Shown in pieces: positions 270 through 26,000 of a stretch of DNA of 34,088 bases. The notes below the pieces were generated by a model. That model was not told the origin of the DNA and did no database searches. It saw only the letters and a program-made list of their open reading frames with translations. The translations under genes were made by a program, and so were the position numbers. How positions within the stretch are numbered: position 1 is the stretch's first letter; every line of letters starts with the position of its first letter. Source of the stretch: a virus (lineage: Duplodnaviria > Caudoviricetes); the IMG/VR virus record IMGVR_UViG_3300017913_001889, positions 1-34,088 of that record; one strand, given 5' to 3'.

Positions 270-290
270 CACTCGTCAATATTTTTTTTT
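256..290. other. Hairpin with tandem GA/GA mismatch next to a T9/A9 tract (possible terminator or ssDNA signal)
   Basis: Minus strand reads TATTGAC-GA-GT-GCTA-AC-GA-GTCAATA (256-281). T9 lies at 282-290 on the plus strand, between convergent transcription units. Confidence 0.5.
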
Positions 291-299
291 ATAAAGAAC

Positions 300-696
300 T
301 GTTATAGGTCTTCCTGTAGATTAATTTGGTCAGACGGAACTATTTACAGTCCCGTCTAAATCTTCCTGTGAGTAGCACCGGCCAAGACTTGTTGGAAGTA
401 GGTATTTTATTTTATACACACCTCCATGGGCTCTGACCTTTCCCAACCTACATCGACATCAAAATATAGCTAATAAGCAATAATTTCTACATTATAGCTA
501 ATGCACTATATTTTTACCCGCACTCTCGTTCCTACTTGTACGGTTTTTAGGAGTATTTGTGTTTTCGAACCACAGCAATAGTTCTACACCAACCTACGAC
601 CAATGGGCTTTCACTCAGTGTGTTTCGTGTCTGATTACGTTTTCGTCAGTTTTTCCACAGCGGAATTATAACCGGCCCGCTAACCTTGTGTGCTGT
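300..696 (-). ncRNA. Putative ~400-nt structured non-coding RNA directly downstream of the GIY-YIG gene
   Basis: The region is ORF-free in a gene-dense genome. Stems: 332-341/348-357, 393-399/420-426, 461-469/506-514, 518-523/538-543, 631-649, 659-663/677-681, and long-range 690-694/374-378. The single mismatch in three of these stems is G-U on the minus strand and A-C on the plus strand. Confidence 0.65.
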
Positions 697-1140
697 TTAC
701 TTGTTTTCTTTGAGGATGCCTAAGTTTGTTAAGCCTTCTTGGAGAATTTTACTGCTGCCTACCCGGAGGTTGATGATGCCATTATAGTATTCGTCTGTGA
801 ATAACACTTGCCTGTCGAACTGTTCTTTTGCTTCCAGATAACTCATCAAGCCTCTACTGGAGCAAAAGTACAAGATCTCTCTAGAGAAATTTTCTTCGCC
901 TAATAGTTTTACATCTGCTTTCAGATGATCGTTTGAGCCCCAGTAATCGCGCCAATCGCTTTCTACCGTTCCTCTACGTCGATTCTTTTTGCCCTTGAGA
1001 GGCGGTTTACTTGTTTTAAACTTTGCCAGTTTTTTGCCAACATATTTTCGATTGTTTGTTAGATTAGTTATAAGGTAAACAAAACCTTCGCAGTCTGCGG
1101 GCAGTTCTTCTACTGTTTCGCCTTTATAAGTCCAACTCAT
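697..1140 (-). CDS. Small stand-alone GIY-YIG family endonuclease
   Basis: Shows GFVYLITNLTNNRKYVGKK (GIY-YIG), YWGS, a conserved Glu in YLEAKEQ and YYNG. It is 147 aa with no NUMOD/HTH tail, and has a GAGGA Shine-Dalgarno upstream. Confidence 0.85.
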   Translation of the reverse strand: MSWTYKGETVEELPADCEGFVYLITNLTNNRKYVGKKLAKFKTSKPPLKGKKNRRRGTVESDWRDYWGSNDHLKADVKLLGEENFSREILYFCSSRGLMSYLEAKEQFDRQVLFTDEYYNGIINLRVGSSKILQEGLTNLGILKENK

Positions 1141-1155
1141 ATATTTCCTCGGGGT

Positions 1156-1173
1156 ATGTACTTAGTGCGCACT
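1156..1173 (-). promoter_or_regulatory. Putative phage promoter TAAGTACAT (late-box variant) with adjoining palindrome AGTGCGCACT
   Basis: Minus-strand TAAGTACAT at 1156-1164 ends 15 nt before the ATG. The same 9-mer at the same spacing lies upstream of the sigma gene. A perfect 10-bp palindrome is at 1164-1173. Confidence 0.5.
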
Positions 1174-1195: not shown

Positions 1196-2959
1196 TTAAA
1201 CAATGTCAACATCGGTATTGTAGTTAGTAAATCCGTTTTCTTTAATAACTTTTAATATGTTGTGTACACGACCTGCTAGTTCGTCTTTGTGCGAGACCAA
1301 CCACACACTCTTGTGTCTTTCTCGGGCCATTTGTTTTAATAATCCTAGTGCGTTTTCAACACCTGATGTATCCATACCCGAATCAACTAGCTCGTCAATG
1401 AACAACAAGTTGATAGCACCGTACAAGCTCTCCCAAACATCGCGGAAGGCCCAACTCATTGACAGAATAAGTCTGTTACGTTCGCCACGACTCAAGTTAT
1501 CAAAATCCAAATCCCTGCCTAGTTCTTGAATCTCCACACTGAGATCGTTTTGAAAAATCACAGTGTGTGGCAACCCAATGCGGTCCAAGTAGTGTGTTAG
1601 TCTTGCGTTTAGGTAGCTCAAATTTTGATCAATAATGCGTTTACGAACAAAACTGTCTTTGTTGGTTAACAGTTTAAGCAAAAAATCTTGGTGCTCTTGT
1701 AGTTTTGTAAGCTCGTTGATAGTATTGTAGTCTACTTCTTGTAACGCCTGCTGTTTCATATCCTCAATTTGTTCAGTGTAAGGATCTGTTTCTTGCTGTC
1801 TGCTTTCTAATTGCTGCACCAGTGTGTTTAAACTGTTCTGATGTTCGTACGCTTGATCTAGATCATCATAAAAAACTGTTGGGGCTGTGCCTAGCGTTCC
1901 TACTTCGGCAATAGCATCTAGGTGTTCTTGCTCTTGTGTTTGGTTAGAAAGTATTTGCAGTGCTGTTTCTTGTAATGTGTCACGTTTGCCCGCTAGTATT
2001 TCTTCGTGAGCATTATCATGCAAATCCTGTCCGCAAGCATAACACCGATGGCTTTCGAGATCCTCAATTTCTTTTTGCAGTTTTTCGGTTAATCTTTGTA
2101 ATTTATTGTTGTCTTGCTGGATATTGCGAATCCATTTGTTGGCGTCGTCGATGGTTTTCTTGCGGTCGTAGAATGCATCCAACGCTTTGTGCGCACCAAT
2201 CTCATCATCAATATTCACGTGTGCCAGACTTTCGATTGCATTACTAAACTGTGCAATATCTTCTGCTTGTTTCTTTAGCCAAAGCCCGCGGCGATTTTCT
2301 AGACTTTTGATTTGATCTTCAATGCGAGTATTTGCTTCTTGCACTGCACGGATACGCATTTCTTCTTCTTTTTGCGCATCCTTGGTTTGTTTCATTTGTT
2401 CTTTGATAGTATCTGCACGTTCGCTGAGAAGCGTAATGCCCAGTAACTGTTCAATGATAGCACGTTGATCGTTTTGTCTCATGCTCAAAAACGGCTCGGT
2501 GTATGTGTTGAGTGCCAGTACATGTTTAAACATATTGTGACTCATGCCGAACAATTTTTCAATTGCTTGTTGTGTTTCTCGACTGTCGCCCTGACTTTCG
2601 TCTGTGGCTTCTTGTTCGTGATTATCAATATAAAACTTTAGAATGTTAGGTTTACGGCCGCGTTCGATGCGATACTCTTGTCCATTAATACTAAACTCCA
2701 AACTAACCAACATGTTTTTGCTGTTGGTTTTGTTAATTAAGTTATCTTTGCGAATTCGTGTAAGTGCTTCGCCAAATAAAGCATAACTAAGTGCATTGAT
2801 AATAGTGGTTTTGCCGGTGCCGTTGCGACTACCGTCACCACCTAAGTCTAAGTTTTCGCCTAATACAAGTGTAAGGTCTTGTCTATCAAAGTTAATGGCT
2901 TGTGTAGCGTTACCCACACTCATAAAGTTTTTAACTGTAAGGTCTTTTATTTCAATCAT
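1196..2959 (-). CDS. gp46: Recombination exonuclease ATPase subunit, T4 gp46 / SbcC / Rad50-like
   Basis: Has N-terminal KNFMSVGN, Walker A GSRNGTGKT, a coiled coil with zinc hook CYAC, signature LSRGE, Walker B LFIDE and H-loop LVSH. Confidence 0.95.
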   Translation of the reverse strand: MIEIKDLTVKNFMSVGNATQAINFDRQDLTLVLGENLDLGGDGSRNGTGKTTIINALSYALFGEALTRIRKDNLINKTNSKNMLVSLEFSINGQEYRIERGRKPNILKFYIDNHEQEATDESQGDSRETQQAIEKLFGMSHNMFKHVLALNTYTEPFLSMRQNDQRAIIEQLLGITLLSERADTIKEQMKQTKDAQKEEEMRIRAVQEANTRIEDQIKSLENRRGLWLKKQAEDIAQFSNAIESLAHVNIDDEIGAHKALDAFYDRKKTIDDANKWIRNIQQDNNKLQRLTEKLQKEIEDLESHRCYACGQDLHDNAHEEILAGKRDTLQETALQILSNQTQEQEHLDAIAEVGTLGTAPTVFYDDLDQAYEHQNSLNTLVQQLESRQQETDPYTEQIEDMKQQALQEVDYNTINELTKLQEHQDFLLKLLTNKDSFVRKRIIDQNLSYLNARLTHYLDRIGLPHTVIFQNDLSVEIQELGRDLDFDNLSRGERNRLILSMSWAFRDVWESLYGAINLLFIDELVDSGMDTSGVENALGLLKQMARERHKSVWLVSHKDELAGRVHNILKVIKENGFTNYNTDVDIV

Positions 2960-3501: not shown

Positions 3502-4045
3502 CTCTGTCCACAGTAAACGATTTCATAACCTTCTCATTGCGTATGCTTTTAACAACATGATACATTGCATTGCGATGAGACCGTTGAATGTTAATCATGC
3601 AAAGAGCAGGATGGGTAATTGCATCTAAGTTCAACTCAGTATCCAGGTAACCACGTGGACTATAGTGTAGTCGGTCAATGAAAGATTCAATAACCATTGG
3701 TTGATCGTTAGCATCTTTGCAAAGTTGCAAGAGTTCCTGCTCGAGTCCAAAATGATTAGTATAAAATAAAAATACAAAGTTTGGAATGTCCAGCATTTCT
3801 GCAACGGTAAAAAAGTTTCTCAAATATACACCCACAGCACACTCATCAAAATAAAAGTCAGTATCCATATGATCAACAATAATTTTGTCGTTGATATCAT
3901 ACTCAGTTTTTTTCAGTTGGCTTAGGACATTCTTGAGTAAGTCAAAATCATAATCGCATTGATCGAAAGAAATTTCTCCAAGAATATTGTACTTTTTTTG
4001 CAACAACTGATAAACTGGCACAGGTATATTTGAAGTTATGGTCAT
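3494..4045 (-). CDS. Hypothetical protein, possibly the N-terminal partner domain of the downstream GT-like ORF
   Basis: 183-aa ORF overlapping gp47 by 4 nt and the next ORF by 8 nt. Its C-terminal CMINIQRSHR resembles the C-x-x-x-x-x-R-x-H-R motif that precedes the SEK domain in longer phage GT-like proteins. Confidence 0.55.
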   Translation of the reverse strand: MTITSNIPVPVYQLLQKKYNILGEISFDQCDYDFDLLKNVLSQLKKTEYDINDKIIVDHMDTDFYFDECAVGVYLRNFFTVAEMLDIPNFVFLFYTNHFGLEQELLQLCKDANDQPMVIESFIDRLHYSPRGYLDTELNLDAITHPALCMINIQRSHRNAMYHVVKSIRNEKVMKSFTVDRDA

Positions 4046-5058
4046 AGATTATTGTAAATTTCCAGCAATAGCTTGTTATCATAAAATTCACTGTCGATGT
4101 TTGTGATTTGATCAACTACAATTTGATCTACACTTTCGAACACTAGTTCTCCTGGCTGTGCATCATCTTCGAGCGCACTTCGTTTGTTTGGAATAAGTGC
4201 CATTTCTCTAAGATTATAATCTTTAACAAACTTTTCTTTGATAAAGTTTGCTTCTTCATAACTGATATCAATATCCAAGTTTACACGAACATGCATTTTT
4301 GGCTTGAGTATACTGTCTGCATGGTCGATCACAGTACTCAAGTCAAGTACATTATACAACGGTTGATCGGGCCATGCATGATATTCGGGCTCATTGCCCC
4401 ACTCCAGTATCATAGCACCTCGATCTGCATCGCCAGCATCTGAAAAGTTGTGTGGAAAAGCATTACCAATGTAGTGAACATTGCCTTTATTCTGTCGTAA
4501 ATGAAAATGTCCAGAAAACACTTTTTCAAAGTGTCCAAAGTCGTTTATCTTAACCTCACCATGATCGGGCATTTCAACCATAGCATTCATCTTGAAATGC
4601 GGAAGTTCAAAGTGACCAAACATGTATTTGCCTGACAGTTTTGAAAGACGCTTGTGGTCATCTCCTACTAACCAAGGAGCAATCACAGCGTCGCCTTCTA
4701 CAAACCAGTCATTGCAGATGTTAATATTAGGTAAATGCTTTGCCCAGGTTACACCTGTAACATCTCGCTTGTCACGATAGTATAAGTCGTGATTACCTGG
4801 AATGAAGTGTACAACATCAAACGCAGCATTGAGTTTTTCCAGTGCTTCTAAACTTTGGTGCAGTGTATTTAGGTTAATACTGGCACGTTGATGGTGCCAG
4901 TCACCTAAAAACAAACAAGTTTCGCAGTTTTGCTCTTTGGCTAGTTGTATTACCCAATCCACAAACTCCAAACAGTCTTGGTTATGCAAAGCACTGTTTG
5001 ATTTTAATCCAAAATGTATATCTGTAAACGCAATAGCACGTTTGAATAAGTTGCTCAT
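4042..5058 (-). CDS. gp47: Recombination endonuclease subunit, T4 gp47 / SbcD / Mre11-like metallophosphoesterase
   Basis: Has DIHFG, LGDWHH, GNHD, GHFE and SGHFH motifs. Start placed at MSNLF (5058), just after the sigma stop, rather than 5094. Confidence 0.93.
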   Translation of the reverse strand: MSNLFKRAIAFTDIHFGLKSNSALHNQDCLEFVDWVIQLAKEQNCETCLFLGDWHHQRASINLNTLHQSLEALEKLNAAFDVVHFIPGNHDLYYRDKRDVTGVTWAKHLPNINICNDWFVEGDAVIAPWLVGDDHKRLSKLSGKYMFGHFELPHFKMNAMVEMPDHGEVKINDFGHFEKVFSGHFHLRQNKGNVHYIGNAFPHNFSDAGDADRGAMILEWGNEPEYHAWPDQPLYNVLDLSTVIDHADSILKPKMHVRVNLDIDISYEEANFIKEKFVKDYNLREMALIPNKRSALEDDAQPGELVFESVDQIVVDQITNIDSEFYDNKLLLEIYNNL

Positions 5059-5059
5059 A

Positions 5060-5971
5060 TTATGACTCTTCAGGTGGTAATCCGTGTTCTGCATACTCAG
5101 CTAGTGTATTAGCTTCGCGTGAATTTTTAAACTGACGTGTATAACTTGGATTGAGTCCGTTTTGCTCTAATATATCGTCGCGGATGTTTTGATTTTTCTT
5201 TTCCAAGTTAAGTACTCGGGTGAAACTGTTTGTAATAGCCGCGGTATAGTATGCAAACGGATTTTGACTCTTTGCTTCGTTGAATTGCAAACCAATTTGA
5301 CTAAGTTGTAGCAGTGCTTGTCCACGCATTTCGTCGTTGTAAGTATAGCCTCGCCAGTTACTGCGAGTAGCATAACGTTCACACAGTTTAATAAACATGT
5401 GTGCTAGTTTGTTGGTCATCATGCCATGATCTTTGCAAAACTCTCCGTCTTCTAGACTGCCTCTCCAGTGACTCTTGCCTACTAGATACGGTTTTTTATT
5501 TTCGTCAATTCTATAGTGATAAAACGGAGGAAATGGTAATTTGATATAGTTGAGGTCTTGTTTGACATCTTCTATAAGTTCCTGTAAACCATCATCATTT
5601 TCGTCTACATCATCCATTTCTAACAATTCTTCCAGCTTTGACTTTTTCTTTTCCTGCGCTTTTGTTAGTTTTTTTGGCACCTTGGGGATATGCTCCCAGC
5701 ACTCAACACGAAATACTAAATCTGTGTTAGCAATTTTTTTAGGATCTATTACTTCACCTGTTTCTCTTTTGTGTCTATCTGCTTGGTTGCGTCTTGCTTC
5801 TGCAATGCTACGTTGATTGATCTTGTCAACACTAGGTACAATAATATCATACTGATGATCCGAAATAGGATCGCGATAAGAACAATAGGTGTTCTTGCTT
5901 TTATGAATTTCTTTAAGAATATCTCGGTTGTTGAGATAGTTTACTTTTTTTGGTTTTTTGACTTCTGCCAT
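5060..5971 (-). CDS. gp55: Late-transcription sigma factor, T4 gp55-like
   Basis: Has NYLNN(R)DI at the N-terminus and NWRGYTYNDEM...FNEAKSQNPFAYYT, matching gp55 region 2. The gp55-gp47-gp46 order is T4-like. Start at 5971 follows a GGAGA SD. Confidence 0.85.
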   Translation of the reverse strand: MAEVKKPKKVNYLNNRDILKEIHKSKNTYCSYRDPISDHQYDIIVPSVDKINQRSIAEARRNQADRHKRETGEVIDPKKIANTDLVFRVECWEHIPKVPKKLTKAQEKKKSKLEELLEMDDVDENDDGLQELIEDVKQDLNYIKLPFPPFYHYRIDENKKPYLVGKSHWRGSLEDGEFCKDHGMMTNKLAHMFIKLCERYATRSNWRGYTYNDEMRGQALLQLSQIGLQFNEAKSQNPFAYYTAAITNSFTRVLNLEKKNQNIRDDILEQNGLNPSYTRQFKNSREANTLAEYAEHGLPPEES

Positions 5972-5986
5972 TATTTTCTCCATAGG

Positions 5987-13172: not shown

Positions 13173-13553
13173 ATGGCAACTTTTATTGGATATAACACAA
13201 TCGGACAGTACAAAACGTACACGTTAACTGACCAAGATCTTATTAAGAGAGATATACTAAATTCTTTGAGCATTCGCCAAGGCGAAAGTATAATGCGTCC
13301 TGAAAACGGGACATCTCTTTGGGATTTTGTGTTTGATCCAATGACAACAGAAGTTGTATCGCGTATCGAAGAAGAAGTACAACGTGTTATAGGAAAAGAT
13401 CCTAGAGTAAATGTAACAGAAGTTATTGTTTACACTCAGGAAAACGGTGTACTACTCGAAGTTCAAGTTGAAACAGTGTTAGGCATAGGCCCACTAGACC
13501 TAATTATTTTGTTTGATCAAGAAGCAAATTCTGTAAGTTACATTCAAACATAA
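13173..13553 (+). CDS. gp25: Baseplate wedge/sheath initiator, gp25-like
   Basis: Has the LIKRDILNSLSIRQGESIMRPENGTSLWDFVFDP...DPRV GPW/gp25 pattern. Confidence 0.9.
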   Translation: MATFIGYNTIGQYKTYTLTDQDLIKRDILNSLSIRQGESIMRPENGTSLWDFVFDPMTTEVVSRIEEEVQRVIGKDPRVNVTEVIVYTQENGVLLEVQVETVLGIGPLDLIILFDQEANSVSYIQT

Positions 13554-13599: not shown

Positions 13600-16500
13600 A
13601 TGGCTAAAACAACAAGACAATCAAGTATTTTTGGAGTAGAAGACTGGAAGCGAATCTACGAAACCTATAGAGAAGCAGACTTTCAAAGCTACGATTTTGA
13701 AACTCTAAGAAAGAGTTTCGTAGACTATATTCGTCTTTACTACCCTGAAAGCTATAACGATTATATCGAAAGCAGTGAGTTTGTTGCACTGTTAGATTTG
13801 ATGGCTTTTATGGGTCAAGCCGTTAGTTTCCGTAATGATTTAAACACAAGAGAAAATTTTCTTGATACTGCTGAGCGTCGTGACAGTGTGGTACGTCTTG
13901 CAGAGCTTGTTGGTTACACACCCAAGCGAAATCAAAGTGCAAAAGGATATATCAAAGTCACTAGTGTTAGCACAACAGAAAATGTTGTAGATTACAACGG
14001 TATCAATCTTAGCAATGTTGTTGTGAACTGGAATGATACTGTCAACCCGGGCTGGCTTGAACAGTTTACAGTTATTATAAATGCAGCCTTAGTAAACAGC
14101 CAACGATTTGGACGTCCAGGAGCTACTAAGAGTATTCTCGGTACACAAACAGACGAATATACATTGAATCTTATCGAAGGCTTACTACCGGTTGTACCTT
14201 TTACATCAACTGTAAATGACACAGAAATGTCATTTGAAGCAATCAGTGCAACAACAGAAGACGCTGATTATGTGTATGAGCCGAATCCACGTCCAGATGG
14301 CGAATTCAATGTTTTATATAGAAACGACAGCAAAGGTTATGCTAGTCCAAACACAGGATTTTTCTTTTTCTTTAAACAAGGAAGTTTGCAAGCACAAAAC
14401 TTTACACTAACAGAGCGTGTAGCAAACAGATTGGTTAATATTAATATCGAAGGCATTAACAATGATGACGTGTGGCTTTACAAATTAAATTCTGACGGCA
14501 CTGTAGGAGGAGAGTGGACTAAGGTAGAAAACATTTATTCTGCTAGCAACGCACAAACTGACATCGACTCGAGAACTTTCTTTAGTGTAGGAAGTCGTGC
14601 TAATGATCAAATTGATCTCAGCTTTGGGGACGGTGTGTTTGGTGACATACCAGTTGGTAATTTTAGAACTTATGTAAGAAGCAGTAACGGGTTGCGTTAC
14701 ATTATCAATCCGCAAGACATGCAAAATGTTAGTTTAAGTTTTACCTATGTGAGTAGAACTGGCAGAAATGAAACTATAACATTCACCTGTCAACTTAGTC
14801 AACCAGTAAGTAATGCTAATAACAGAGAAAACATAGACGATATCAAGAACAGAGCTCCTGCAAAATTTTATACACAAAATAGAATGGTAAATGGTGAAGA
14901 TTATAACAATATGCCTTACACTCTGTTTGGGACAATCATAAAGAGTAAAGCAATTAATCGAAGCAGTATAGGTACAAGTAGATACTTAGATCTAGTTGAC
15001 ATCACAGGCAAGTATAGTTCAACAAATGTGTTTGGCAGTGACGGTCTACTATACGAAGAAAATAAACTGCCGAACTTTACTTTTACATTTGTTGACACCA
15101 ATGACATTAACAATGTGATTAGAAATCAGTTAGAGCCTGCTATTACAGAAAGAGGCATGCTGGAATTCTACTACAAGAATTTTGATAGACAAACTATCAG
15201 TGGGTTAGAGTGGGAACAAAGTACAACTTTGGCTAACCAAACTACTGGATATTTCAAAAATAGCAGTACTGAAGATCCTGCTCCTGTGGGATCTTCTACC
15301 ACAGATACCACGCAGTTTATCGTCGAAGATGCATTAGTTAAATTTGAAGCACCGTCTGGTCAGTATTTTGATAAAAACAATAGATTAAAAACAGGAACAC
15401 CAACTTTACCAGATGACAAACTTGTAATCTGGGCTACAGTGGTTGATTTATATCTAAATGGAACAAATTTTGGAGCAGGTAACTTGTCAGATGGATCAGG
15501 GCCTGTAACATTAAACAATTTTGTTCCAAGCGACGCAATACCTACACAAGTCATTCCAATTTTTATAAGTGATTTGCCGGTAGACTTTGAAACAGATATC
15601 ACTGAGCAAATAGAATTGTATAAAGAGTTTGGCATAGGCTTTGACGAAGTTGATGGAGAGTGGTATGTAATTACATCTGCTAACCTAAACTCAGCTAATA
15701 CATTTAGCAATACAAATGCCAAAGACACTAACGGCACTGGAAGAGACAATAGCTGGCTTGTAAAATTTACAAACGATGGTGTAACGTATACAGTTACATC
15801 AAGAAGTTTACAACGCTTCTTTGCTAGCATACAACAAACACGTTTCTTTTATGATGGCACACAACAAGTTTATGACTCAAAAACTGGTGAAGTAGTAAAT
15901 GATTTTGTTAACGTTCTCAAAACCAACAACAAACCAGATTCGAGTAGTCCTCTTAATGGCGATGTACTATTAGACATAATTGGGCAACCAGCAGAAAGCG
16001 ACGGCTTTGTGGATGATTTCCGAGTACGAGTAAGTTACAGTGATTTTGACAATGACGGAATTCCAGACGATCCAGATTACTTTGAAACATTGATTGCACC
16101 GGACACAAATTCTACTAGCAAAAAGATATTCTTACAGCAAACAACAGACTTTGACAATCTTGAAAGAAGCACACCACTTGCATCGGGTGATGTGATTACA
16201 AGCCTGGCTACATTGGCAGCAATTGAATTAGTAAAAAGTGAATACCCAGACGGGCAAGTGTTTTATGCAAGTACTGATGAAGAGTTTTACTCGTTGTCAG
16301 TTGACAGCGACGGCGTAAGAACTATCAGTGAAGCATCGGGTTACTCTGTGTTCACAGGTAGACAAGACTTTAGTTTTCAATATAGACATAATGCGCCACT
16401 AAGCAGAAGAATCGACCCAGGCACAACCAATATCATTGACATTTATTTGGTGACAAACAGTTACTACACAGCCTATCAAAACTACATCAACGACAGTACA

Positions 16501-17001
16501 AACACTGTAGCAGAACCAGTTCAACCTACTATTAACGAACTAAGCACAGATTATGAAAGCATAAACGAATATAAAATGATCAGTGACAATGTTATTTTAA
16601 ACAGTGTACGATTTAAACCATTGTTCGGTAGCAAAGCCGAAGCTGATCTTAGAGCTATTATTAAAGTTATTAAGAATGCAAACAGCACAGTTAGTAACAG
16701 TGAAATCAGAAGCAGAACGCTTGCTTCCATGAACATCTACTTTAGTATTGACAATTGGGATTTCGGCGATACATTTTATTTTTCGGAATTAAGTGCGTAC
16801 TTACACGAGCAACTGGGTGATATTATCAGCAGTGTTGTATTAGTGCCAGTTGATCCTCTCAAGAGCTTCGGGGATCTATATGAAATAAGAAGCGAAGCAG
16901 ACGAAATTTTTGTTAACGCAGCAAGTGTTAACGATATCGAAGTTGTAGATGCATTAACAAGTAGCACATTAAGAACAGCAAGTAACAGTGGAGTACAATA
17001 A
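13600..17001 (+). CDS. gp6: Baseplate wedge protein, gp6-like (extended, 1133 aa)
   Basis: Has YDFETLR, ENFLDTAERRDSVVRLAELVGYTPKR, FGDGVFGDIP and ENIDDIKNRAP...QNRMVNGEDY motifs. Follows gp25. Confidence 0.88.
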   Translation: MAKTTRQSSIFGVEDWKRIYETYREADFQSYDFETLRKSFVDYIRLYYPESYNDYIESSEFVALLDLMAFMGQAVSFRNDLNTRENFLDTAERRDSVVRLAELVGYTPKRNQSAKGYIKVTSVSTTENVVDYNGINLSNVVVNWNDTVNPGWLEQFTVIINAALVNSQRFGRPGATKSILGTQTDEYTLNLIEGLLPVVPFTSTVNDTEMSFEAISATTEDADYVYEPNPRPDGEFNVLYRNDSKGYASPNTGFFFFFKQGSLQAQNFTLTERVANRLVNINIEGINNDDVWLYKLNSDGTVGGEWTKVENIYSASNAQTDIDSRTFFSVGSRANDQIDLSFGDGVFGDIPVGNFRTYVRSSNGLRYIINPQDMQNVSLSFTYVSRTGRNETITFTCQLSQPVSNANNRENIDDIKNRAPAKFYTQNRMVNGEDYNNMPYTLFGTIIKSKAINRSSIGTSRYLDLVDITGKYSSTNVFGSDGLLYEENKLPNFTFTFVDTNDINNVIRNQLEPAITERGMLEFYYKNFDRQTISGLEWEQSTTLANQTTGYFKNSSTEDPAPVGSSTTDTTQFIVEDALVKFEAPSGQYFDKNNRLKTGTPTLPDDKLVIWATVVDLYLNGTNFGAGNLSDGSGPVTLNNFVPSDAIPTQVIPIFISDLPVDFETDITEQIELYKEFGIGFDEVDGEWYVITSANLNSANTFSNTNAKDTNGTGRDNSWLVKFTNDGVTYTVTSRSLQRFFASIQQTRFFYDGTQQVYDSKTGEVVNDFVNVLKTNNKPDSSSPLNGDVLLDIIGQPAESDGFVDDFRVRVSYSDFDNDGIPDDPDYFETLIAPDTNSTSKKIFLQQTTDFDNLERSTPLASGDVITSLATLAAIELVKSEYPDGQVFYASTDEEFYSLSVDSDGVRTISEASGYSVFTGRQDFSFQYRHNAPLSRRIDPGTTNIIDIYLVTNSYYTAYQNYINDSTNTVAEPVQPTINELSTDYESINEYKMISDNVILNSVRFKPLFGSKAEADLRAIIKVIKNANSTVSNSEIRSRTLASMNIYFSIDNWDFGDTFYFSELSAYLHEQLGDIISSVVLVPVDPLKSFGDLYEIRSEADEIFVNAASVNDIEVVDALTSSTLRTASNSGVQ

Positions 17002-20000
17002 TTGGCTAATAGAATAAGAACAATTGATTTTCTACCTGAAATTTTTAGAACTGAGACTAACAAACAGTTCTTAAGCAGTACATTAGACCAATTAGTACAA
17101 GAACCAAAACTTAGACCCACGCAAGGTTATATAGGCAGACGCACAGGACTTGGAGTAGAATCCACTGATCAATATGTAATTGAACCTACTCAACAGAGAA
17201 CAGACTATCAATTTGAACCAAGTTTGGTTTTTCTTGAAAATGATAAAAATGCTGTAACGGATGTTTTAACCTATCCAGGATACATCGATAGACTGCGTAT
17301 CAAGGGTGCTAATGTCGATCGTCATGACAGACTGTTTAACAGCGAGTTTTATAGCTGGGATCCTTTTGTTGATTTTGACAAATTTGTAAACTTTGGACAA
17401 TACTATTGGCTACCTGACGGACCGGACAGTGTTGATGTAAGTGCTTCGGAAGTTTTAGTAACAGACGACTTTACAGTTAGCAGAACATCAACTGGTTACA
17501 CTTTCAGCGATGTAGCTGGGACATTACCAACTATTACACTAGCTCGTAACGGAAGTTACACGTTTGATGTAAATCAAAATGGCAATCCATTTTACATTCA
17601 AACAACACCGGGCAAAGATGGCACATTATCATTCAATGATCAAAGCAGTAGAGATGTGTTGGGTGTTGTGAACAATGGCGAAGACAACGGTACAATCACA
17701 TTTAATGTGCCGGAAAGAACAGCACAAAATTTCTTTTTAGAGTTGACGAGTGCAGGTTCTGTTGATCTTGTTACGGATTTAAAGTTTAATCAAATCCATA
17801 ATGTATCCTTAAGTGCATTCTTAGAGGAACATGACGGTATTGACGGTATTACAGATTTAGATGATCGTACTATTATTTTTACTACCCGAGTAGCCGGCGA
17901 AGATGGCGGCTGGTTAGAATCTACACAATTTGATAATGTGCAAGGATTTGACGGCGAAGAATATGATAAAACTAGAACTATCACTGACAATTCAGAAAAG
18001 TACGGAACATGGAAAATAGTTTATGTTTACGATAGCAACGGTGAAAATCCTTTCCTTACATTGGTAAGCACTGGCACAGTTGATACACAAACAAAACTTA
18101 CAATCAATTATGGCACAACATACGCTAGTACACAGTTTTGGAAAACATCTGAAGAGTATTTTGAAAAAGTACCGTTAATCACTGCAAGTTTAGATGTCTT
18201 ATACTATCAAGACGGAACAAATGATAACTTCTTTGGCGTTATAAAATTAGTTGATCAAGAAGACAGTGATGTACTAGATATTAACGATATATTAGGATCT
18301 GTTTCATACACTAGCCCTAATGAGGTAGTGTTTACTAACGGACTTAAAGTTCAGTTCGAAGGAAGAGTAACACCTACAAGTTATGCAGGAAATGAATATT
18401 ATGTCGAAGGGGTAGGCACAAGTATACAACTTCTTCCTGTTAACGATTTTATTACACCCGAAGATTATGCTGAAAGTCTATCAACTCCTTTTGACACACT
18501 AGGTTTCGACGAAGGAGGCTGGGACGGTTCAGAAAATGCACCTCTAAATAAAGACTACATGATTATGAACCGTGCTAGCCCGGATAAAAATGCCTGGGCA
18601 AGAAACAATAGATGGTTCCATGTTGATGTAATTACAGACACAGCTAGTTATAATAATACCACGGCTGTGTTAGATAATACAAAAAGAGCAAATCGTCCAA
18701 TCTTGGAGTTTAGAGCAGGATTAAGTTTATATAATTCTGGGTCGCAAGCAATAGACCCAGTTGATATTATTGATAATCTAGAGCTTGATGCATTTACCAA
18801 CATCAACGGAGAAACAGGTTATAGTGTCGACGGTGTGGCATTAGAAGAAGGCACAAGAATAATTTTTGCAAAAGACACTGATCCTGCTGTGCGAAACAAA
18901 GTTTATACTGTAAACTTTGTTGAATTCGATGACAGCTCTGAGCCAGTTATTAGTTTGCAGGCTCCAAATATTGAGCACCCTAGTATTGCAGTGAATTCAT
19001 CTGTTTTGATAACCAGTGGTGTTGATAACGGCGGAAAAACATATTATTACGACGGCGTTGAATGGAAACTAGCACAGTACAAAGAAGAATTAAATCAAGC
19101 ACCCTTGTTTGATTTGTATGATATTAATGGCTATAGTTTTTCAGATCACTCTGTGTATCCTAGCTCTAGCTTTGTTGGAAGCAAATTATTTGGATATGCA
19201 GTAGGCACTGGTGTAAATGATACAGTAATCGGACAACCACTCAAGTATCTAAATATCAATAACGTAGGCGACATAGTTTTTGAGAATTATTTAAACACAG
19301 AAACATTTACATTTGTAAATGGCGCCGGAGTTGGAGAAACTGTTAAAATTAACACTGGTTATGCAAGAGAGTATTCTGATAGAACAACCTATACAACTTT
19401 GTTAGGTTGGCAAAAATCCAGTGACGAAGTTGTTTCCTTGCAGAGATTTAGTTTTGATTACACAGGCGATGACTTAATACTAGATGTAGAAGCAAACACA
19501 GCAAACAATGCAGTAAAGGTATTTGTAAATGGAGTTTTCTTATTACCTGAAAATTACACTTACTCTACGAACAGCAACAATGTAACACAAATAACTTTTA
19601 TAAATGCACCAGAACTAAACAGCTTAGTTGAAGTCTCTGTACAGAGTAACAGTGTAAGTCAAGTAGGACATTACACTGTTCCAAGTAACTTGGAAAACAA
19701 TAGTACTAACACTAACGAAAATGAACTTACACTAGGCACTATTCGTAATCATTATAACACAATATGCCAAAATATTGATAACTTTGATGGCAAGATCAAT
19801 GGAGCAAATAATCTAAGAGATCTAGGTAACACCGTGCCATACGGTAGAGGAATTTTGCAACAAAGTAGTCCACTTACTATGCTAGGCACATTCCTCAATG
19901 ATAGTAGATTTGATTTGTTTAATGCATTAGATTTTGCATCAAACGAATATGAAAAATTTAAAAATCGTTTGTTAGATGAAGCAATTAAATCTGACTGGCA

Positions 20001-23000
20001 AGGTAAAACTACAGATTTTATTTTAGATACTGTATTAGAAACACTAAATGCTGGTAAAAACCAATACAGTCCATTTTACTGGACCGATTCAATACCAAGT
20101 GGTAAAACTTACGAAGAAACAACATATACTGTGTCTGACATAACAACAGATACGTTTGATACATTGTATTCTTACGATTTTACTACTGCAAGCTATAATG
20201 GTATTTTGATATACTTAAATGATGAAATATTACTTGGCGATGCACATGAATACACAGTAGCAACGGATGGCCCAAGAATTACTATTAATACAGATCAAAT
20301 TACACTAACCAATGGCGACGTCTTAAAGATTAGAGAGTTTAGACAAACATACGGCAGTTTTGTGCCTTCTTCTCCTGCAAGTTTAGGACTATCTCCAGTT
20401 TGGGAACCTAATAAGTTTGCCGACGACACTTATACTACAACTACAAATGTAATCAGAGGACACGATGGTAGTATAACTGTAGCATATGATGATTTTAGAG
20501 ATGATTTACTTTTGGAATTTGAAAAAAGAATCTATAATAACATCAAAACAGATAACAGATATCAAGTGCCACTGGAAGTTGTTGACGTTATGCCTGGAGC
20601 AAGTCGTGAAACAGAATACAGTCTAACAGAAATAAATGAAATACTGAGCAAAGATTTCTTGCGTTGGGTAGGCACAAACAAATTACCATATAACGAACAA
20701 ACATATGATGCAAACAATCCGTTTACGTGGAACTATACAAGCAGTACCAGTAAACTCACTGGAGAAGTTTTGTTAGGTGGATGGAGAGCAATCTACAGAT
20801 ATTATTATGACACGGACCGTCCTCATAGTCACCCATGGGAAATGCTAGGCTTAACAGAAAAACCGAGCTGGTGGGATAACAAATATGGTGTTGCTCCTTA
20901 TACATCAGGTAATTTAGTTCTATGGGAAGACCTGCGTGATGGTTATCTTGCAGATCCAGATAACCCAAGAACACTAGCAGATTATGCTCGTCCGGATTTG
21001 TTAAGAATTATTCCAGTTGATAGTGAAGGAAATTTACTTTCGCCTAGAGATACAATTGTGGGCAACTATGATTCTAATAGTTTTGCAAAGAGTTGGGTAA
21101 TAGGTGATGAAGGACCGGTTGAGACTGCATGGAGACGTAGTAGCCATTATCAGTTTGCTCTACAAAGATTATTAGCATTAACAAAGCCAGCAAAATATTT
21201 TTCATTGTTTGCAGATAGAATTTCATACAAGTATAACACCGATTTCGAACAATTCCTAGTCGACAATCGTAGTAGATTACAACCAAATACTGTAAATGTA
21301 TACGGCAATGAAACTATTACAAACAGTTACATGAATTGGATAATCGATTATAACAGACTCCTAGGCGTAGATAGCACAACATTGTTAGAAGATCGTTTGG
21401 ATAACATAGATGTAAGACTCAGTTACAGAATGGCTGGATATAGCGATAAGCAATACCTGAAAATCTTTTCAGAAAAAAGTTCTCCGGATAGTCTAAACAA
21501 CAGTCTTCTAATACCTGATGAAAGTTATCAAATGCTGTTGTATAAAAATCCAGCATTTGAAGAAGTATCTTACAGTGGTGTGATTATTCAAAAAGCCGAC
21601 AACGGGTATACAATATTTGGATACAGCACACTTAATCCATACTTTGAAACTCTAAGCAGTATTCCTAATGGGCGTTATTCGACTTTTAATGTAGGCGGAG
21701 ACGACTATAGAATATCAAGTGATTTCCGTGACACTGTAGTAAGAATACCATACGGATATACTTTTACAAGCAAAAGCTCTGTTGTTGATTTCTTGGTAAG
21801 TTACGGAAAACTACTAGAAAATCAGGGCATGACATTTGATAATATTGAAAACAACATTGTTGTTGACTGGAAGCAAATGGCCCAAGAATTTGTTTACTGG
21901 GCAGATGCAAATTGGGTGACAGGTAGTTTGATTAATCTTAATCCTGGTGCTAATATTGTTAAAATATCTAAAGACTCAGCAGTAGCTGAAAGTTTGATTG
22001 CGCCGGGTCTAGATAACATAATGCTAGATCAGAACAAGCAAGCTATTAATGATACTGATTATGTGGTTGAACGTATCGAAAATGATTTAACGCTTCGTGC
22101 ATTGAGTAACAATAATTTTAACTTGTTAACTGCTAGATTTACAGCATATGAACATATTGTTGTTCTTGATAACACCAGTATTTTCAATGATTTGATTTAT
22201 AATCCGGGTACCGGTGCTAGACAAAACAGACTTTTGATTAACGGTTACAAGACATTCGATTGGAACGGTACTCTTGATGCACAAGGTTTTATACTCAATC
22301 AAGACAATGTGCAACAATGGGAACCAGATCAAAGCTACAGCAAAGGTGAGATTGTACTGTATAAAAATGCTTATTGGAGCGCATCTGAAATTATTCCGCC
22401 TAAGGCAGAGTTCGATTTCAATGATTGGATTAAGAGCGACTACAATAAAATACAAAAAGGATTATTACCTAATCTTGCAACCAAAGCCGATCTGTTGAAA
22501 GACAACTATAGTTTAAATTCTGCAAATTTGGAAAGAGACGGAGACCTCCTTGGGTTTGGTCTAATTGGATTCCGCCCAAGACAATACATGCAAAATCTTA
22601 ATCTAGACGATATAAGTCAGGTTAATTTATACAAACAATTCTTAGGGTCAAAAGGTACTCTAGCAAGTGCAGAAATTTTTAGTTTAGCAAATCTCAACAA
22701 AGAAGTTGCTGAGTATAACATTACAGAAAACTGGGCTATTAAACGAGCAAGTTATGGTGCAACTGCGAACAGAAACTTTATTGAATTGAATCTCAAAGAC
22801 GAAAATCTGTATGCGAACCCAAGCACAGTTAGCGTAGTTGATACAAACGGGTCAGCAAGCAGCACTGCTGATCAAACTATTTTGATAGAGGATATCTATA
22901 AAGAAAGTGTTAAAGTTACAGACACTAACATTTTACCTACCTATACTTTAGGCAAACCAGATAAAATCTTGCCTGATGCAGGATACGTTAACTTTGACGA

Positions 23001-26000
23001 TGTTGAAATCAAGGTGTTTGATTTTAACGATCTATCTGCAATTATAAACAACATAGAACTACTAGCTCTTGGTACAAACATATGGGTAGCTAAATCAAAC
23101 ACTTACGATTGGAATATTTACAGAGCAAATCTAATTGCTCCGAGAGTTACACAGGTCACTGATAATTTAAATGGCACATCCACTGTGCAGTTTGACGGCA
23201 TCCATAGTTTAAGTGCTGGCGACAAAATAATTATAAAATATTTTGACATACTAGTAGATGGTGCATATGAAGTTGCGAATGTGCCAAGTATAACCACAGC
23301 AACAATTGCATTAAGTTTACCAGGTGAAACTACATCAATTACCGAAAGTGGCATAGGGTTAGTATTGTCTAGTGTGCGAGTTGAACAATCTAGCGATATC
23401 CTTGACTTGAACATTGCTAATACAATTGTTCCCGGAAGTAGAGTATGGAGTGATAACAACGGTAGCGATAAGTGGAATGTTTACAAAAAAACAAGTCCTT
23501 ATGCGTTTGAATATCACCTAGAACCAGACGATAGCAAGTCGGTAGATATGCTATACGGCACCTCGGTGGCAATAGGAATAGATGGTTTTGGCGCAATAGT
23601 CGGTGCCCCAGGTTACGACAGTGGCAAAGGAGGAGTATATACCTATAATAAAGACGGTATTACATCCTTTGAACAAGTAAGTTTACTAGGACCAGACACC
23701 ACCGGCATAGTAGGATTTGGGACTTCCCTTGACATAGGCGGCACAGAATATGCTGTTTCTGGTGCACCAGAAAGTGACACTGATCGCGGATATGCTTTTA
23801 TAATTAACAGAAGCAGATCTACAGGACAATATCTTATTAGACAATGTTTGACCACGGATGGAGCACTAGCTGCAACTGGGGAATTCGGATATAGTGTTGC
23901 AATCAGCAATGATGAGCGTTGGATGTACATCGGTGCCCCCGGAGATGATAAGGTATATGCTTACAACAAGTTTGAAACAGAGCAACAAAGCATTGACTTT
24001 GTAGGCGACGGTAGTACCAATGAATTTGATATTAGCAACGCAGTAAAAGTTGATGACGACAGTACTGATAATGGAATTGGCAAAGATCAGTTAAGCGTTT
24101 TGATAAACAATCGTGCGCAAGACGATAGCGACTGGGCGTATGCCGATGGCGAAGTGTCATTTAGTACAATCCCAAATGCTGGAGATGCAATTCGAGTAAC
24201 TCGAAAACAAAGTTTGTTTTACGAAGCAACCAATATTGCAGAGCTAGAGTTAAACAACGTTTATACAATAGCAAAAGCCAACAACATATACGCATTTTCT
24301 GTATTCGTTGACGATGTAATACAGCGTCCGTTTATCGATTACACATATAACGAATCTACAAAGATTCTATCCTTCAGTTCAACTGAATATCCTTCGGGAG
24401 TAACAGGTGATATTCTAATTAGATCTGACTCTTATTGGCAACTTGTAGACTCATTTACATATTTTGATATCACAGGAGATGCAAAAGACCATAACACCAG
24501 ATTTGGTACTTCTATTGCAACAACAACTGATGGCAGACAGCTAATGGTTGGCGCACCTAACGATACTGTTAGCGGAAAAGATAATACCGGTACTGTGGTT
24601 GCAATTGATCGTAGCGTCTTAAAATATCAGATACAAGATAATGACCACGACGGCGAATTCACTGACTTTACCAGCACAGATTCAACAGAAACAGTTTACG
24701 GTACACCTACTGTAAAACTCAATGGTAGATTCTTAAAACTAGATGACGGAACTAATTTTGGCGGTGAATACACTTGGGAAAATGATACTGTTTCTATCTC
24801 AGAAGATTTAAGTGTTGGTGACATTGTTGAAATTGAAACCAATGCATTCAAGATGTTCCAAAGAGTTGCACCGCAAACTGCTGAAGTGAATTTAAACTTT
24901 GGTACTGAACTAGAACAATGTTCAACAAATTGCACATTGTATATCAGTAATATCAACGACAGTACAATTGTAAAAGAATCAGGAAGCGTAGATCGTTGGA
25001 CAAACAATGCAAGGGTTTACGGTACAATAACAGGAACTGTGCAAAATCCAACTCCTACTGTTGGGCATAGTATTAGAATAAACAACTACGAAGTGGTACT
25101 AACTGGAACGTCTCTTGCAGAAACTGTGGACGATATTAACAATGCAAATTTACCAAATATAACTGCAAGTGCAAGCAATGGTTATTTAAAATTAGATCTA
25201 GTGGATGTTGACGCAGGAGATGTATTTACAAAACTTCAAGTAATGCCTGGTGCAGGATCTGCTTATACGGATTTAGGAATACAAGTTCTTGGATATACGC
25301 AGACTATTCATCCTCCTGTTGCATCTGAAAACGGGCACTTCGGTACGTCTTTAATCAACGACATCAGCAATGGTGTAAACACTTTGTTTGTTGGAGCACC
25401 GGATGCATCTGCTATAAGAGCAACAACGTTTGACGACAATTCAACATCATTTGATGGCGGAAGCACTGAAATACAAACCACATTAGAAAAAACAGGTGTG
25501 GTTTACACTTACGATTATTTGTCAAGTACAAACTCTAGTGTAGATAATCCGGGCAAGTTTGTGTTTGGGCAACAAGTTTACAATTTGGATATTTTCGGAT
25601 TGGATAGATTTGGTGCATCATTGAGTTACTATAACGGCCTATTATTAATCGGAACACCGCAAGATGATCTAGGGGACAGTGTCGGAAACTTTGGGCAAGC
25701 ATCTCTATACTTTAATGAAAAAAGAGGCAGAGCATGGGCAACAGAATACGAACAGCAAGATATTGTTGATGTAGAATTATTGAATAGTGTGTTTGTTTAC
25801 AATAAAACAAGCAATCAAGTAATCGATTATATTGATTATGTTGATCCTATACAAGGAAAGATTCTAGGTGTTGCAAGACAAAACATTGATTATATAACTG
25901 GATTAGATCCAGCTCAGTACAATGTTGGTAACGAAAACAACAACGGGCAATTCTGGAGAGATGTACACGTTGGCGAAATTTGGTGGGATATAAGCACTGT

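Follow-up and report, generated by a model that had tools for sequence, protein, structure and literature searches.

Large, ornate non-coding RNAs without an assigned function are rare, and those which have been solved have repeatedly given new biochemistry; the HEARO and IS605-orfB motifs later proved to be guide RNAs. One motif without an assigned function is Polynucleobacter-1 (Rfam RF01718), listed in the accessible part of its original description as a candidate RNA with 16 members, found in Burkholderiales and in fresh and estuarine water (Weinberg et al. 2010, PMC2864571). The T4 origins oriF and oriG combine a promoter with an unwinding element and a persistent RNA-DNA hybrid, and the hybrid of ColE1 requires a specific RNA stretch, according to an extract of PMC4412123. 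The locus considered here lies in a 34-kb piece of an uncultured viral contig (IMG/VR record IMGVR_UViG_3300017913_001889, positions 1-34,088), of which the whole 34,088 nucleotides (nt) were analysed and are referred to as the window. On its minus strand a gene for a stand-alone GIY-YIG nuclease of 147 amino acids (aa) is followed by a gap, and this gap encodes a conserved, covarying structured RNA of about 390 nt, with several domains, on the strand of the nuclease gene. The RNA family of the window is widespread and absent from Rfam; its sister forms have the catalogued Polynucleobacter-1 motif as their 5' domain, and the family extends a motif catalogued since 2010 without a function. A first-pass annotation, made from the letters of the window, had proposed that nuclease and RNA form a ribonucleoprotein, possibly RNA-guided. 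The comparative data do not show an RNA-guided GIY-YIG nuclease, and this negative result matters in its own right.

The structured RNA and its relatives

The gap behind the nuclease stop codon (270-696) is the sole long stretch without an open reading frame (ORF) of at least 70 aa in the 34 kb, as had been noticed at first pass, and extends to the end of the plus-strand ORF 3-269. Folded as a single sequence, the stretch is modestly more stable than its shuffles (z = -2.28 on the minus and -1.28 on the plus strand); the comparative evidence is decisive. With blastn, the non-coding blocks of the window are found downstream of many GIY homologues at 71-85% identity, and in alignments of these downstream regions invariant runs are broken by compensatory changes. 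Conserved blocks and covariation place the whole RNA, with predicted ends, at 306-696 on the minus strand, and divide it into a 5' domain, a hairpin with a GGAACGA loop, a variable hairpin and a 3' core.

The 5' domain (572-696, minus strand) is closed by a long-range helix (691-696 / 572-577) and contains the hairpins P1 (677-682 / 658-663) and P2a (631-649) and a further helix (613-620 / 587-594). In an alignment of 37 sequences (A4), 18 of the 29 predicted pairs have compensatory changes and 95.6% of the cells are paired, versus 30-52% in slid controls; the covariation score of 0.516, versus 0.217 after shuffling, was equalled by none of 500 shuffles. Pair types in the closing helix are CG:20 / AU:14 / GC:2 and AU:21 / GC:15. 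The long-range helix proposed earlier (690-694 with 374-378) is not conserved, and 691-696 pairs with 572-577 instead. The next element, hairpin H1 (518-543, stem 539-543 / 518-522), has the invariant GGAACGA in its loop (526-532), with pair types UA:19 / CG:15 and CG:20 / GC:14 / UA:3, and is followed by a hairpin of variable length (463-512) which in the aligned relatives ranges from absent to about 100 nt.

The conserved 3' core (307-466, minus strand) was identified through the covariance model R1, which matches the window at 127.4 bits (E-value 2e-31), and through a scan with a conserved 17-mer. It contains the helices H3 (446-451 / 398-403) and H4 (442-445 / 427-430), the latter capped by the invariant 11-nt loop AAAGGUCAGAG (431-441), and the H5/H6 region (368-390). 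In the alignment of the core (A1; 39 non-redundant sequences, five helices and 31 pairs), 91.3% of the cells are paired compared to 30-44% in slid controls, five pairs have double changes, and the covariation score was reached by none of 500 shuffles. Many core pairs toggle between A-U and G-U, or between C-G and U-G, against an invariant partner. Such toggles would be A-C mismatches on the other strand and fit an RNA of the nuclease-sense strand only. The structured RNA that had been predicted on this strand, from mismatches of the same kind, is thus present as a conserved and covarying structure, in both the 5' domain and the 3' core, downstream of the homologues of the nuclease.

Two peripheral regions of the RNA (columns 100-160 of A4, in L140 and L175, and 463-512 of the window) range from absent to about 100 nt, a length variation which resembles the expansion segments of other large RNAs. 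In one relative (L121, oriented 1951-2265), an extra ORF of 104 aa with a CxxC motif is found between the GIY gene and the RNA, overlapping the 3' end of the former, and the first RNA block, UAACAGCACAUAA, is tandemly duplicated.

Counts taken from the listed scan matches are lower bounds. A protein-based scan of IMG/VR gave 80 loci with nuclease homologues out of an estimated 3000 or so stretches, while the invariant H4 17-mer is estimated to occur in 820 IMG/VR stretches, from which 120 loci were retrieved. R1 matches the window and 25 of the 80 loci sampled by way of the GIY gene at an E-value of 1e-19 or better; L063 and L065 match at 55.6 bits, and four further matches among the same 80 loci are weak and correctly placed. 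Most of the loci without an R1 match, where enough downstream sequence is present, have an ORF-free gap of 400-770 nt, with sister RNAs that carry the same 3' module. The RNA of the window belongs, as these loci show, to a superfamily sharing a 3' module of the form repeat-hairpin-repeat.

Against Rfam, the check suggested at first pass, the RNA of the window has no match at the gathering thresholds; the rows obtained at E-values up to 10 (snoR120, Trp leader, Phe leader, RyhB and similar) lie far under their gathering scores and are rejected as chance. RF01718 itself is not matched in the window, neither at its gathering threshold (37 bits) nor at E-values up to 10. In the sister locus L038, on the other hand, the first 147 nt past the GIY stop codon are Polynucleobacter-1, at 107.8 bits versus the cut-off of 37; L041 and L082 share the motif (nhmmer), which is also visible by eye in the loci sampled by way of the gene gp46 (see below). 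Among 50,697 records of cultured phages, no match was obtained by megablast and blastn of the window RNA or by blastn of the L003 RNA. The cellular genomes (596 Gb) contain 38 matches to the 17-mer, which is about the number estimated by chance, and three true R1 matches, all on contigs of metagenome-assembled genomes (L203, L235 and L239) that are presumably mis-binned phage DNA. The RNA family is abundant in uncultured aquatic T4-like phages.

Twin repeats, hairpin H7 and the flank beyond

The striking feature of the RNA is a short sequence which occurs twice. In the window, copy 1 (361-369) and copy 2 (309-317), both on the minus strand, are identical (ACAGGAAGA) and enclose hairpin H7 (331-358), with a 10-bp stem that is 94.9% paired in the relatives, followed by an invariant UCUGAC. 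Every member of the superfamily has the same layout in its 3' module: a short hairpin region, a heptamer, a spacer of 0-25 nt, H7, UCUGAC or UGUGAC, a linker of 7-12 nt, and the heptamer again. Along the stem of H7, A-U often alternates with G-U, and C-G with U-G, opposite a 3' arm that is invariant; selection thus acts at the RNA level. The two heptamers match within a locus and differ between lineages, with 23 distinct copy pairs in 100 R1 matches. In the 90 distinct rows left after removal of two misaligned loci, each of the six variable positions has an identity of 0.98-1.0 between the copies, which are identical at a mean of 6.52 of the seven positions, versus 5.33 (standard deviation 0.12) with shuffled partners. 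Heptamers of the R1 family include ACAUGAA, ACAUGAU, ACAUAAU, ACAUAAA, ACGUGAA, GCAUGAA, GCAUAAA, GUAUGAA and ACAUGAG, that of the window being ACAGGAA. The identity rule is kept in distant subfamilies (AGAUAAU, GGAUGAA, AGAUGAA, GGAUGAU, CGUGAUG and UGUCAAG, and AUCAUCAAGU in L117), and also where the RNA lies behind a gene for a PDDEXK nuclease. Applied downstream of GIY genes, an unbiased detector of repeats of at least 7 nt around a hairpin of at least 8 bp responded in 81 of 112 regions, and in two of 112 shuffles. Two repeats that must be identical constitute a clean and testable rule.

The heptamers are unpaired in the consensus structure, and no consistent complementary partner for them was found within about 1 kb, by exact or G-U-tolerant search, or in a column-by-column scan of the core alignment. 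The extended repeat of the window has no excess of matches on either strand of the window (14 versus 10.6 expected). The simplest explanation for copies that are identical, yet lack a complementary partner in the RNA, would be that each pairs with the template DNA of the other.

Other accounts of the repeats were considered. Self-pairing of the two copies was rejected because, while some variants are palindrome-like (CAUG), ACAGGAAG of the window and AUCAUCAAGU of L117 are not, as judged by eye. A translational bypass of the T4 gene 60 type, suggested by the matched take-off and landing sites and the hairpin, was rejected on the basis of stop codons in all three frames upstream of repeat 1. 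The consensus sequences of box C/D, K-turn and CsrA sites fit some variants only. Separately, the Polynucleobacter-1-type RNAs of L291, L296 and L297 have a second pair of direct repeats, AAAGACG, around a 14-bp hairpin about 160-235 nt past the GIY stop codon, so that the repeat-hairpin-repeat design may occur twice in one RNA.

The unpaired and hypervariable state of the heptamers, matched in each locus and placed just before a hairpin, is also what a trans-acting regulatory RNA would have if its body were a scaffold and the heptamers duplicated seeds for a single RNA target, of the phage or of the host. In three studies, RNA-library contigs cover the core at depths equal to or above those of the ORF, and point weakly in the same direction, as the depths sum over relatives and DNA carry-over is possible. 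No complementary site stands out in the window for the extended repeat, seven nucleotides are few for a seed that changes so freely, and the hairpin past repeat 2 is not followed by a run of U in several members; a trans-acting role is accordingly regarded as unlikely.

The RNA-library data (four to five runs) consist of assembled contigs, each with a small share of the query, from which no start, end, strand or splice can be read. Cover is absent over parts of 308-379 of the window, and the joints seen at 2533/2534 of L084 are accounted for by the variable hairpin in relatives. Through repeat 1, the hairpin and repeat 2 these contigs run unspliced and without gaps, and no joint is seen at the repeats. 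This weighs against an intron-like or other ribozyme, in the form of a degenerate group I-type element or of a self-cleaving RNA by which the stretch from one repeat to the other would be excised. Such a ribozyme would have a precedent in the nuclease genes harboured by catalytic introns, and would account for the invariant unpaired nucleotides and for a possible loop-to-tail pseudoknot (GGUCAGA / UCUGACY) seen by eye, both sides of which are invariant. However, neither the window nor seven relatives gave a match to an Rfam intron or ribozyme at E-values up to 5-10, and the completeness of the upstream gene gp46, together with flanking genes that differ between contexts, implies that there are no exons. 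A catalytic element of this kind is considered most improbable.

Beyond repeat 2 the sequence is rich in A and T. In the window, 26 of the 29 bases at 278-306 (minus strand) are A or T, and two terminal hairpins follow (257-280 and 239-256, within 239-280 on the minus strand), which in the alignments keep their position across genomic contexts. Among the relatives, the first 40 nt past copy 2 contain 68-76% A+T, compared to a fraction of about 0.6-0.67 further on, and the tract with its two or three small hairpins is kept in every genomic context. The terminal hairpins of the relatives carry two mini-hairpin motifs, GCGNNAGC and CGNAG, of which the window has variants only. GCGNNAGC is found on the sense strand 20-86 nt past copy 2 in 47 of 58 distinct relatives; GCGNAGC is present in 29 of the 58 on the opposite strand, where it stands at +7 to +11, and in 14 of the 58 on the sense strand. 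In control regions, the RNA body excepted, the motifs occur in 0-2 of 51-61. In the available portion of a 2026 review (PMC13037366), these two motifs are DNA mini-hairpins of extraordinary stability, which occur in RSF1010 ssiA and where primase acts on the phages G4, St-1 and alpha3. The terminal hairpins overlap the last codons of the plus-strand ORF 3-269, which has no Pfam or PHROG match. Either the end of this ORF is constrained by the hairpins, or the ORF has been called too long.

The nuclease gene and its linkage to the RNA

The nuclease gene (697-1140, minus strand, with the stop codon TAA at 697-699; PHROG 447) encodes a SegE-type protein that matches Pfam PF19835 (SegE_GIY-YIG) over the full model, 1-123 of 123, at 114.1 bits (cut-off 25; E-value 6e-33). 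As stated at first pass, it has nothing beyond the GIY-YIG domain and lacks the C-terminal DNA-binding module from which I-TevI and the Seg enzymes usually derive their specificity. This domain-only form is the norm in the family, as most of the 79 measured homologues have 138-155 aa. The GIY and YIG motifs are about 11 residues apart, and Y22, Y33-G35, R56, E88 and N120, presumably the equivalents of the catalytic residues of I-TevI, are invariant in 20 homologue sequences. Across these 20 there are 34 invariant columns at identities down to 47%. An AlphaFold model based on 20 homologues (predicted local distance difference test score 91.3) has the catalytic domain of I-TevI as its top two neighbours in the PDB, as weak matches (E-values 0.13-0.2, template-modelling scores 0.55-0.65), while a sequence search of the PDB gave no match. 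The nearest named relative is a hypothetical protein of the Methylophilales phage Melnitz, 75.6% identical in the tblastn match. The family is widely labelled 'NAD synthetase' in cyanophage and rhizobiophage deposits and in the PHROGs, which appears to be a propagated mis-annotation. A Shine-Dalgarno-like GAGG box stands 7 nt ahead of the ATG, in agreement with the first reading. A search of the minus strand ahead of the ORF for a sigma-70-like promoter was negative; the first reading had noted a promoter-like box there.

Sampled from the RNA side, a GIY gene of the same strand lies directly upstream, with its end 158-580 nt ahead of the 17-mer, in 70 of the 72 loci with at least 900 nt of upstream sequence. 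The two exceptions (L117 and L126) have the whole RNA without a GIY gene, behind an ORF of 159-166 aa of no known family; for the 166-aa ORF of L117, the protein atlas, Pfam and the PHROGs gave nothing usable. The phages of these two loci are of another type, and downstream of the RNA they have a terminase small-subunit-like gene. In L126 a 65-aa ORF containing WGIPWPPPKGW reads into the first block of the RNA, and in L117 a gene for an HNH endonuclease lies about 1.4 kb upstream. The nuclease occurs without the RNA as well: in Melnitz the homologous gene is followed by a spacer of 148 nt and the whole 141.5-kb genome has no R1 match, and several nuclease homologues in IMG/VR are directly followed by another ORF.

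The usual upstream neighbour of the cassette is a gene for a Rad50/SbcC-type, gp46-like ATPase, identified in the window (1196-2959, minus strand; complete, 587 aa) by the Pfam families AAA_23, SMC_N and Rad50 zinc hook and by synteny. Of 80 loci sampled by way of gp46, 64 have a GIY homologue (45-78% identical) at most 3 kb downstream, and three of the remaining 16 still carry the RNA. In two of these three (L263 and L293), a gene for a 168-aa PDDEXK_15 endonuclease (PF24608, E-value 1e-23) ends 6-7 nt before the RNA; in the third (L287) the PDDEXK gene lies one ORF further up and the RNA stands directly behind a 335-aa gene of no known family. Moreover, the close and the distant GIY clades each occur with 5' domains of both the Polynucleobacter-1 and the window type, with or without the R1 core. 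An obligate partnership between nuclease and RNA is therefore not supported. The basic insert KPPLKGKKNRRR, singled out at first pass as a possible RNA-binding segment, does exist, and it is invariant in homologues both with and without the RNA; being universal, it is uninformative on RNA binding.

These findings bear most directly on the proposal that the RNA guides or scaffolds a GIY-YIG ribonucleoprotein and supplies the target recognition absent from a domain-only nuclease. The missing DNA-binding module, the tight adjacency on one strand and the heptamers, which alone among the unpaired segments of the conserved scaffold vary freely and in that sense resemble a guide, would all suit such a complex. 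On the other hand, nucleases of the same architecture and 69-76% identity lack the RNA, the RNA persists without the nuclease (L117 and L126) or behind an unrelated PDDEXK enzyme, its domains do not co-evolve with the nuclease clades, the basic insert is universal, and the heptamers, taken as the variable guide-like segment, match each other and not a flanking target. RNA and ORF thus occur independently, as Melnitz, L117, L126, L263, L293 and the shuffled domains show, an outcome which the first-pass annotation had itself named as refuting its idea; an RNA-guided nuclease is now highly unlikely. The co-transcription assumed there fares better, since the two lie on one strand and the first helix of the RNA abuts or overlaps the stop codon of the nuclease, its 5' strand in many loci being formed by the last codons. 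Co-transcription is thus likely, while an obligate or guide-type ribonucleoprotein is not upheld.

The cassette also moves. The GIY gene and the RNA are found as a pair behind four different upstream genes, gp46 in most loci and three others; these other ORFs, judged by eye only, have a nucleotide-binding-like N-terminus (544-547 aa; L106 and L154) or are radical-SAM-like (L121) or tetrapyrrole-synthesis-like (L124). In 171 loci with both genes, the identities to the gp46 and the GIY protein of the window correlate negatively (r = -0.67): the GIY protein is at least 70% identical in just three of 40 loci where gp46 is at least 65% identical, and gp46 at least 65% in just three of 78 loci where the GIY protein is at least 72%. 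The cassette has therefore passed from one backbone to another at this one locus, as would be expected of homing. The sporadic presence, with 16 of the 80 gp46 relatives lacking a GIY gene, the four contexts and the incongruent phylogeny are the behaviour by which mobile homing endonucleases are known. The steady presence of a small nuclease upstream could reflect hitch-hiking homing genes at a conserved site, or a real cooperation with a structure formed by the RNA.

One explanation for such a moving unit, of which the RNA would be the structured 3' untranslated tail, is a selfish two-part cassette in which the tail of a homing-endonuclease mRNA acts in cis on processing, stability or expression of the nuclease; for example, folding of the first helix may compete with ribosomes that terminate inside it. 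The start of the RNA at or across the stop codon, with the last codons as 5' strand of the closing helix in many loci, is consistent with this, as are the GIY gene directly upstream in 70 of the 72 loci, the mere 6-7 nt that separate a different nuclease gene from the RNA in L263 and L293, and the transfer between backbones and contexts. It is nevertheless unlikely: some 390 nt with invariant loops and twin repeats far exceed known 3' regulatory elements, the RNA persists in L117 and L126 without a recognised nuclease gene and in L287 behind the 335-aa gene, and the identity of the two repeats is left unexplained.

The wider surroundings are those of a T4-like phage. The minus strand carries, in order, genes for a gp55-like late sigma factor (5060-5983) and an SbcD/gp47-like protein (4042-5094), two small ORFs, the gp46-like gene and the 147-aa ORF; the suggestion that nuclease and RNA work with gp46/47 finds shared synteny and nothing that shows a functional tie. 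No tRNA was found in the window. Its baseplate region contains a gp25-like gene (13173-13553), an ORF of 1133 aa (13600-17001) and a single ORF of 4096 aa (17002-29292, plus strand). CheckV gives a completeness of 10% for the window and 30-53% for related contigs of 103-186 kb, values which suggest genomes of roughly 340 kb.

Possible action of the RNA on its own DNA

The reading favoured here, with low confidence, is an R-loop or origin-like element in which the RNA would pair with the DNA that templates it; the nuclease genes would be swappable homing neighbours rather than partners. The RNA (306-696), likely transcribed as the tail of the nuclease mRNA, would act in cis: one RNA copy of the repeat is complementary to the template DNA of the other, and H7 would bring the upstream RNA repeat beside the downstream DNA repeat, so that an RNA-DNA hybrid would be anchored and persist. 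Just downstream, the tract rich in A and T and the mini-hairpin motifs of the DNA would then serve as an unwinding or priming zone, and the element as a whole as an R-loop-type origin or recombination start, in the manner of ColE1 RNA II or T4 oriF/oriG. The small nucleases may either home to the conserved locus or cut the structure formed there. If the repeats do anchor the RNA on its own DNA, this would represent a new kind of origin or recombination initiator for the T4-like phages of the ocean, and would explain why unrelated nucleases have repeatedly landed alongside.

Several points weigh against action on the template DNA. The window has variants in place of the exact mini-hairpin motifs, the A+T enrichment past repeat 2 is modest in the relatives (0.68-0.76 versus about 0.6-0.67), and GCGNNAGC may be read equally well as an ordinary RNA hairpin with a GNNA loop. 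In the window the genes on either side of the locus converge, a layout atypical of origins, and the cumulative GC-skew minimum, found 4-5 kb from the RNA in two long contigs, is uninformative; this minimum is assumed to be the strand switch seen in the window at about 6 kb. An ornate fold of 390 nt with invariant loops far exceeds the needs of known R-loop primers, and could point to a ribozyme or to a platform for binding. A trans-acting RNA or protein could equally well keep the two repeats identical, and real cooperation, not hitch-hiking, may be the reason why a small nuclease gene of one family or the other is almost always adjacent.

Such a cooperation would not need the logic of a guide. 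The repeats might make the transcript form a slipped RNA-DNA hybrid at its own locus, which the structure-specific nuclease encoded upstream, whether a domain-only GIY-YIG or a junction-resolvase-like PDDEXK, would cut, the 3' end so produced launching replication or the copying of the cassette into co-infecting genomes. This is judged distinctly unlikely; if true, it would mean a nuclease substrate made by RNA, and a new way of starting both phage DNA synthesis and homing.

The known systems each share a part of these properties. Compared to the group I introns with GIY-YIG enzymes (I-TevI) and the Seg and Mob genes of T4, the locus has the SegE-type domain, I-TevI as top structural neighbour (weak) and homing-like behaviour, while it lacks exons, an intron signature and a C-terminal DNA-binding module, and its protein family is unusually conserved for a selfish gene. 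HEARO and OMEGA systems (IscB and TnpB) likewise consist of a nuclease ORF followed by a large conserved RNA on the same strand, the start of which overlaps the end of the ORF. However, OMEGA pairs are obligate and co-evolving and their guide matches the DNA flanking the element, whereas the parts here are separable and have been reshuffled, another nuclease can take the place of the GIY-YIG enzyme, and the variable segments are matched to one another, with copy 2 about 70-150 nt inside the conserved unit. The primase-recognition hairpins of G4, St-1, alpha3 and RSF1010 ssiA have the same motifs of 7-8 nt that stand here at fixed distances past repeat 2, going by the same portion of the review (PMC13037366); those are signals of single-stranded DNA replicons, while the present genome is double-stranded and T4-like, and a reading as RNA hairpins is equally possible.

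In sister loci, Polynucleobacter-1 follows the GIY stop codon immediately and is itself followed by the same repeat-hairpin-repeat module, with no function assigned to either. The 5' domain of the window does not match it at any threshold tried, and the catalogued motif, at 141 nt, covers about the first third of the full RNA; the accessible 2010 text (PMC2864571) makes no mention of nuclease neighbours or of twin repeats. ColE1 RNA II and T4 oriF/oriG have no known twin repeat or ornate conserved fold, and the hybrid and the origin activity are here postulated. The resemblance lies instead in a transcript that runs into an A+T-rich zone, with the priming RNA-DNA hybrid held by an upstream segment of the RNA, as described in the extract of PMC4412123, and in a locus set among genes for replication and recombination.

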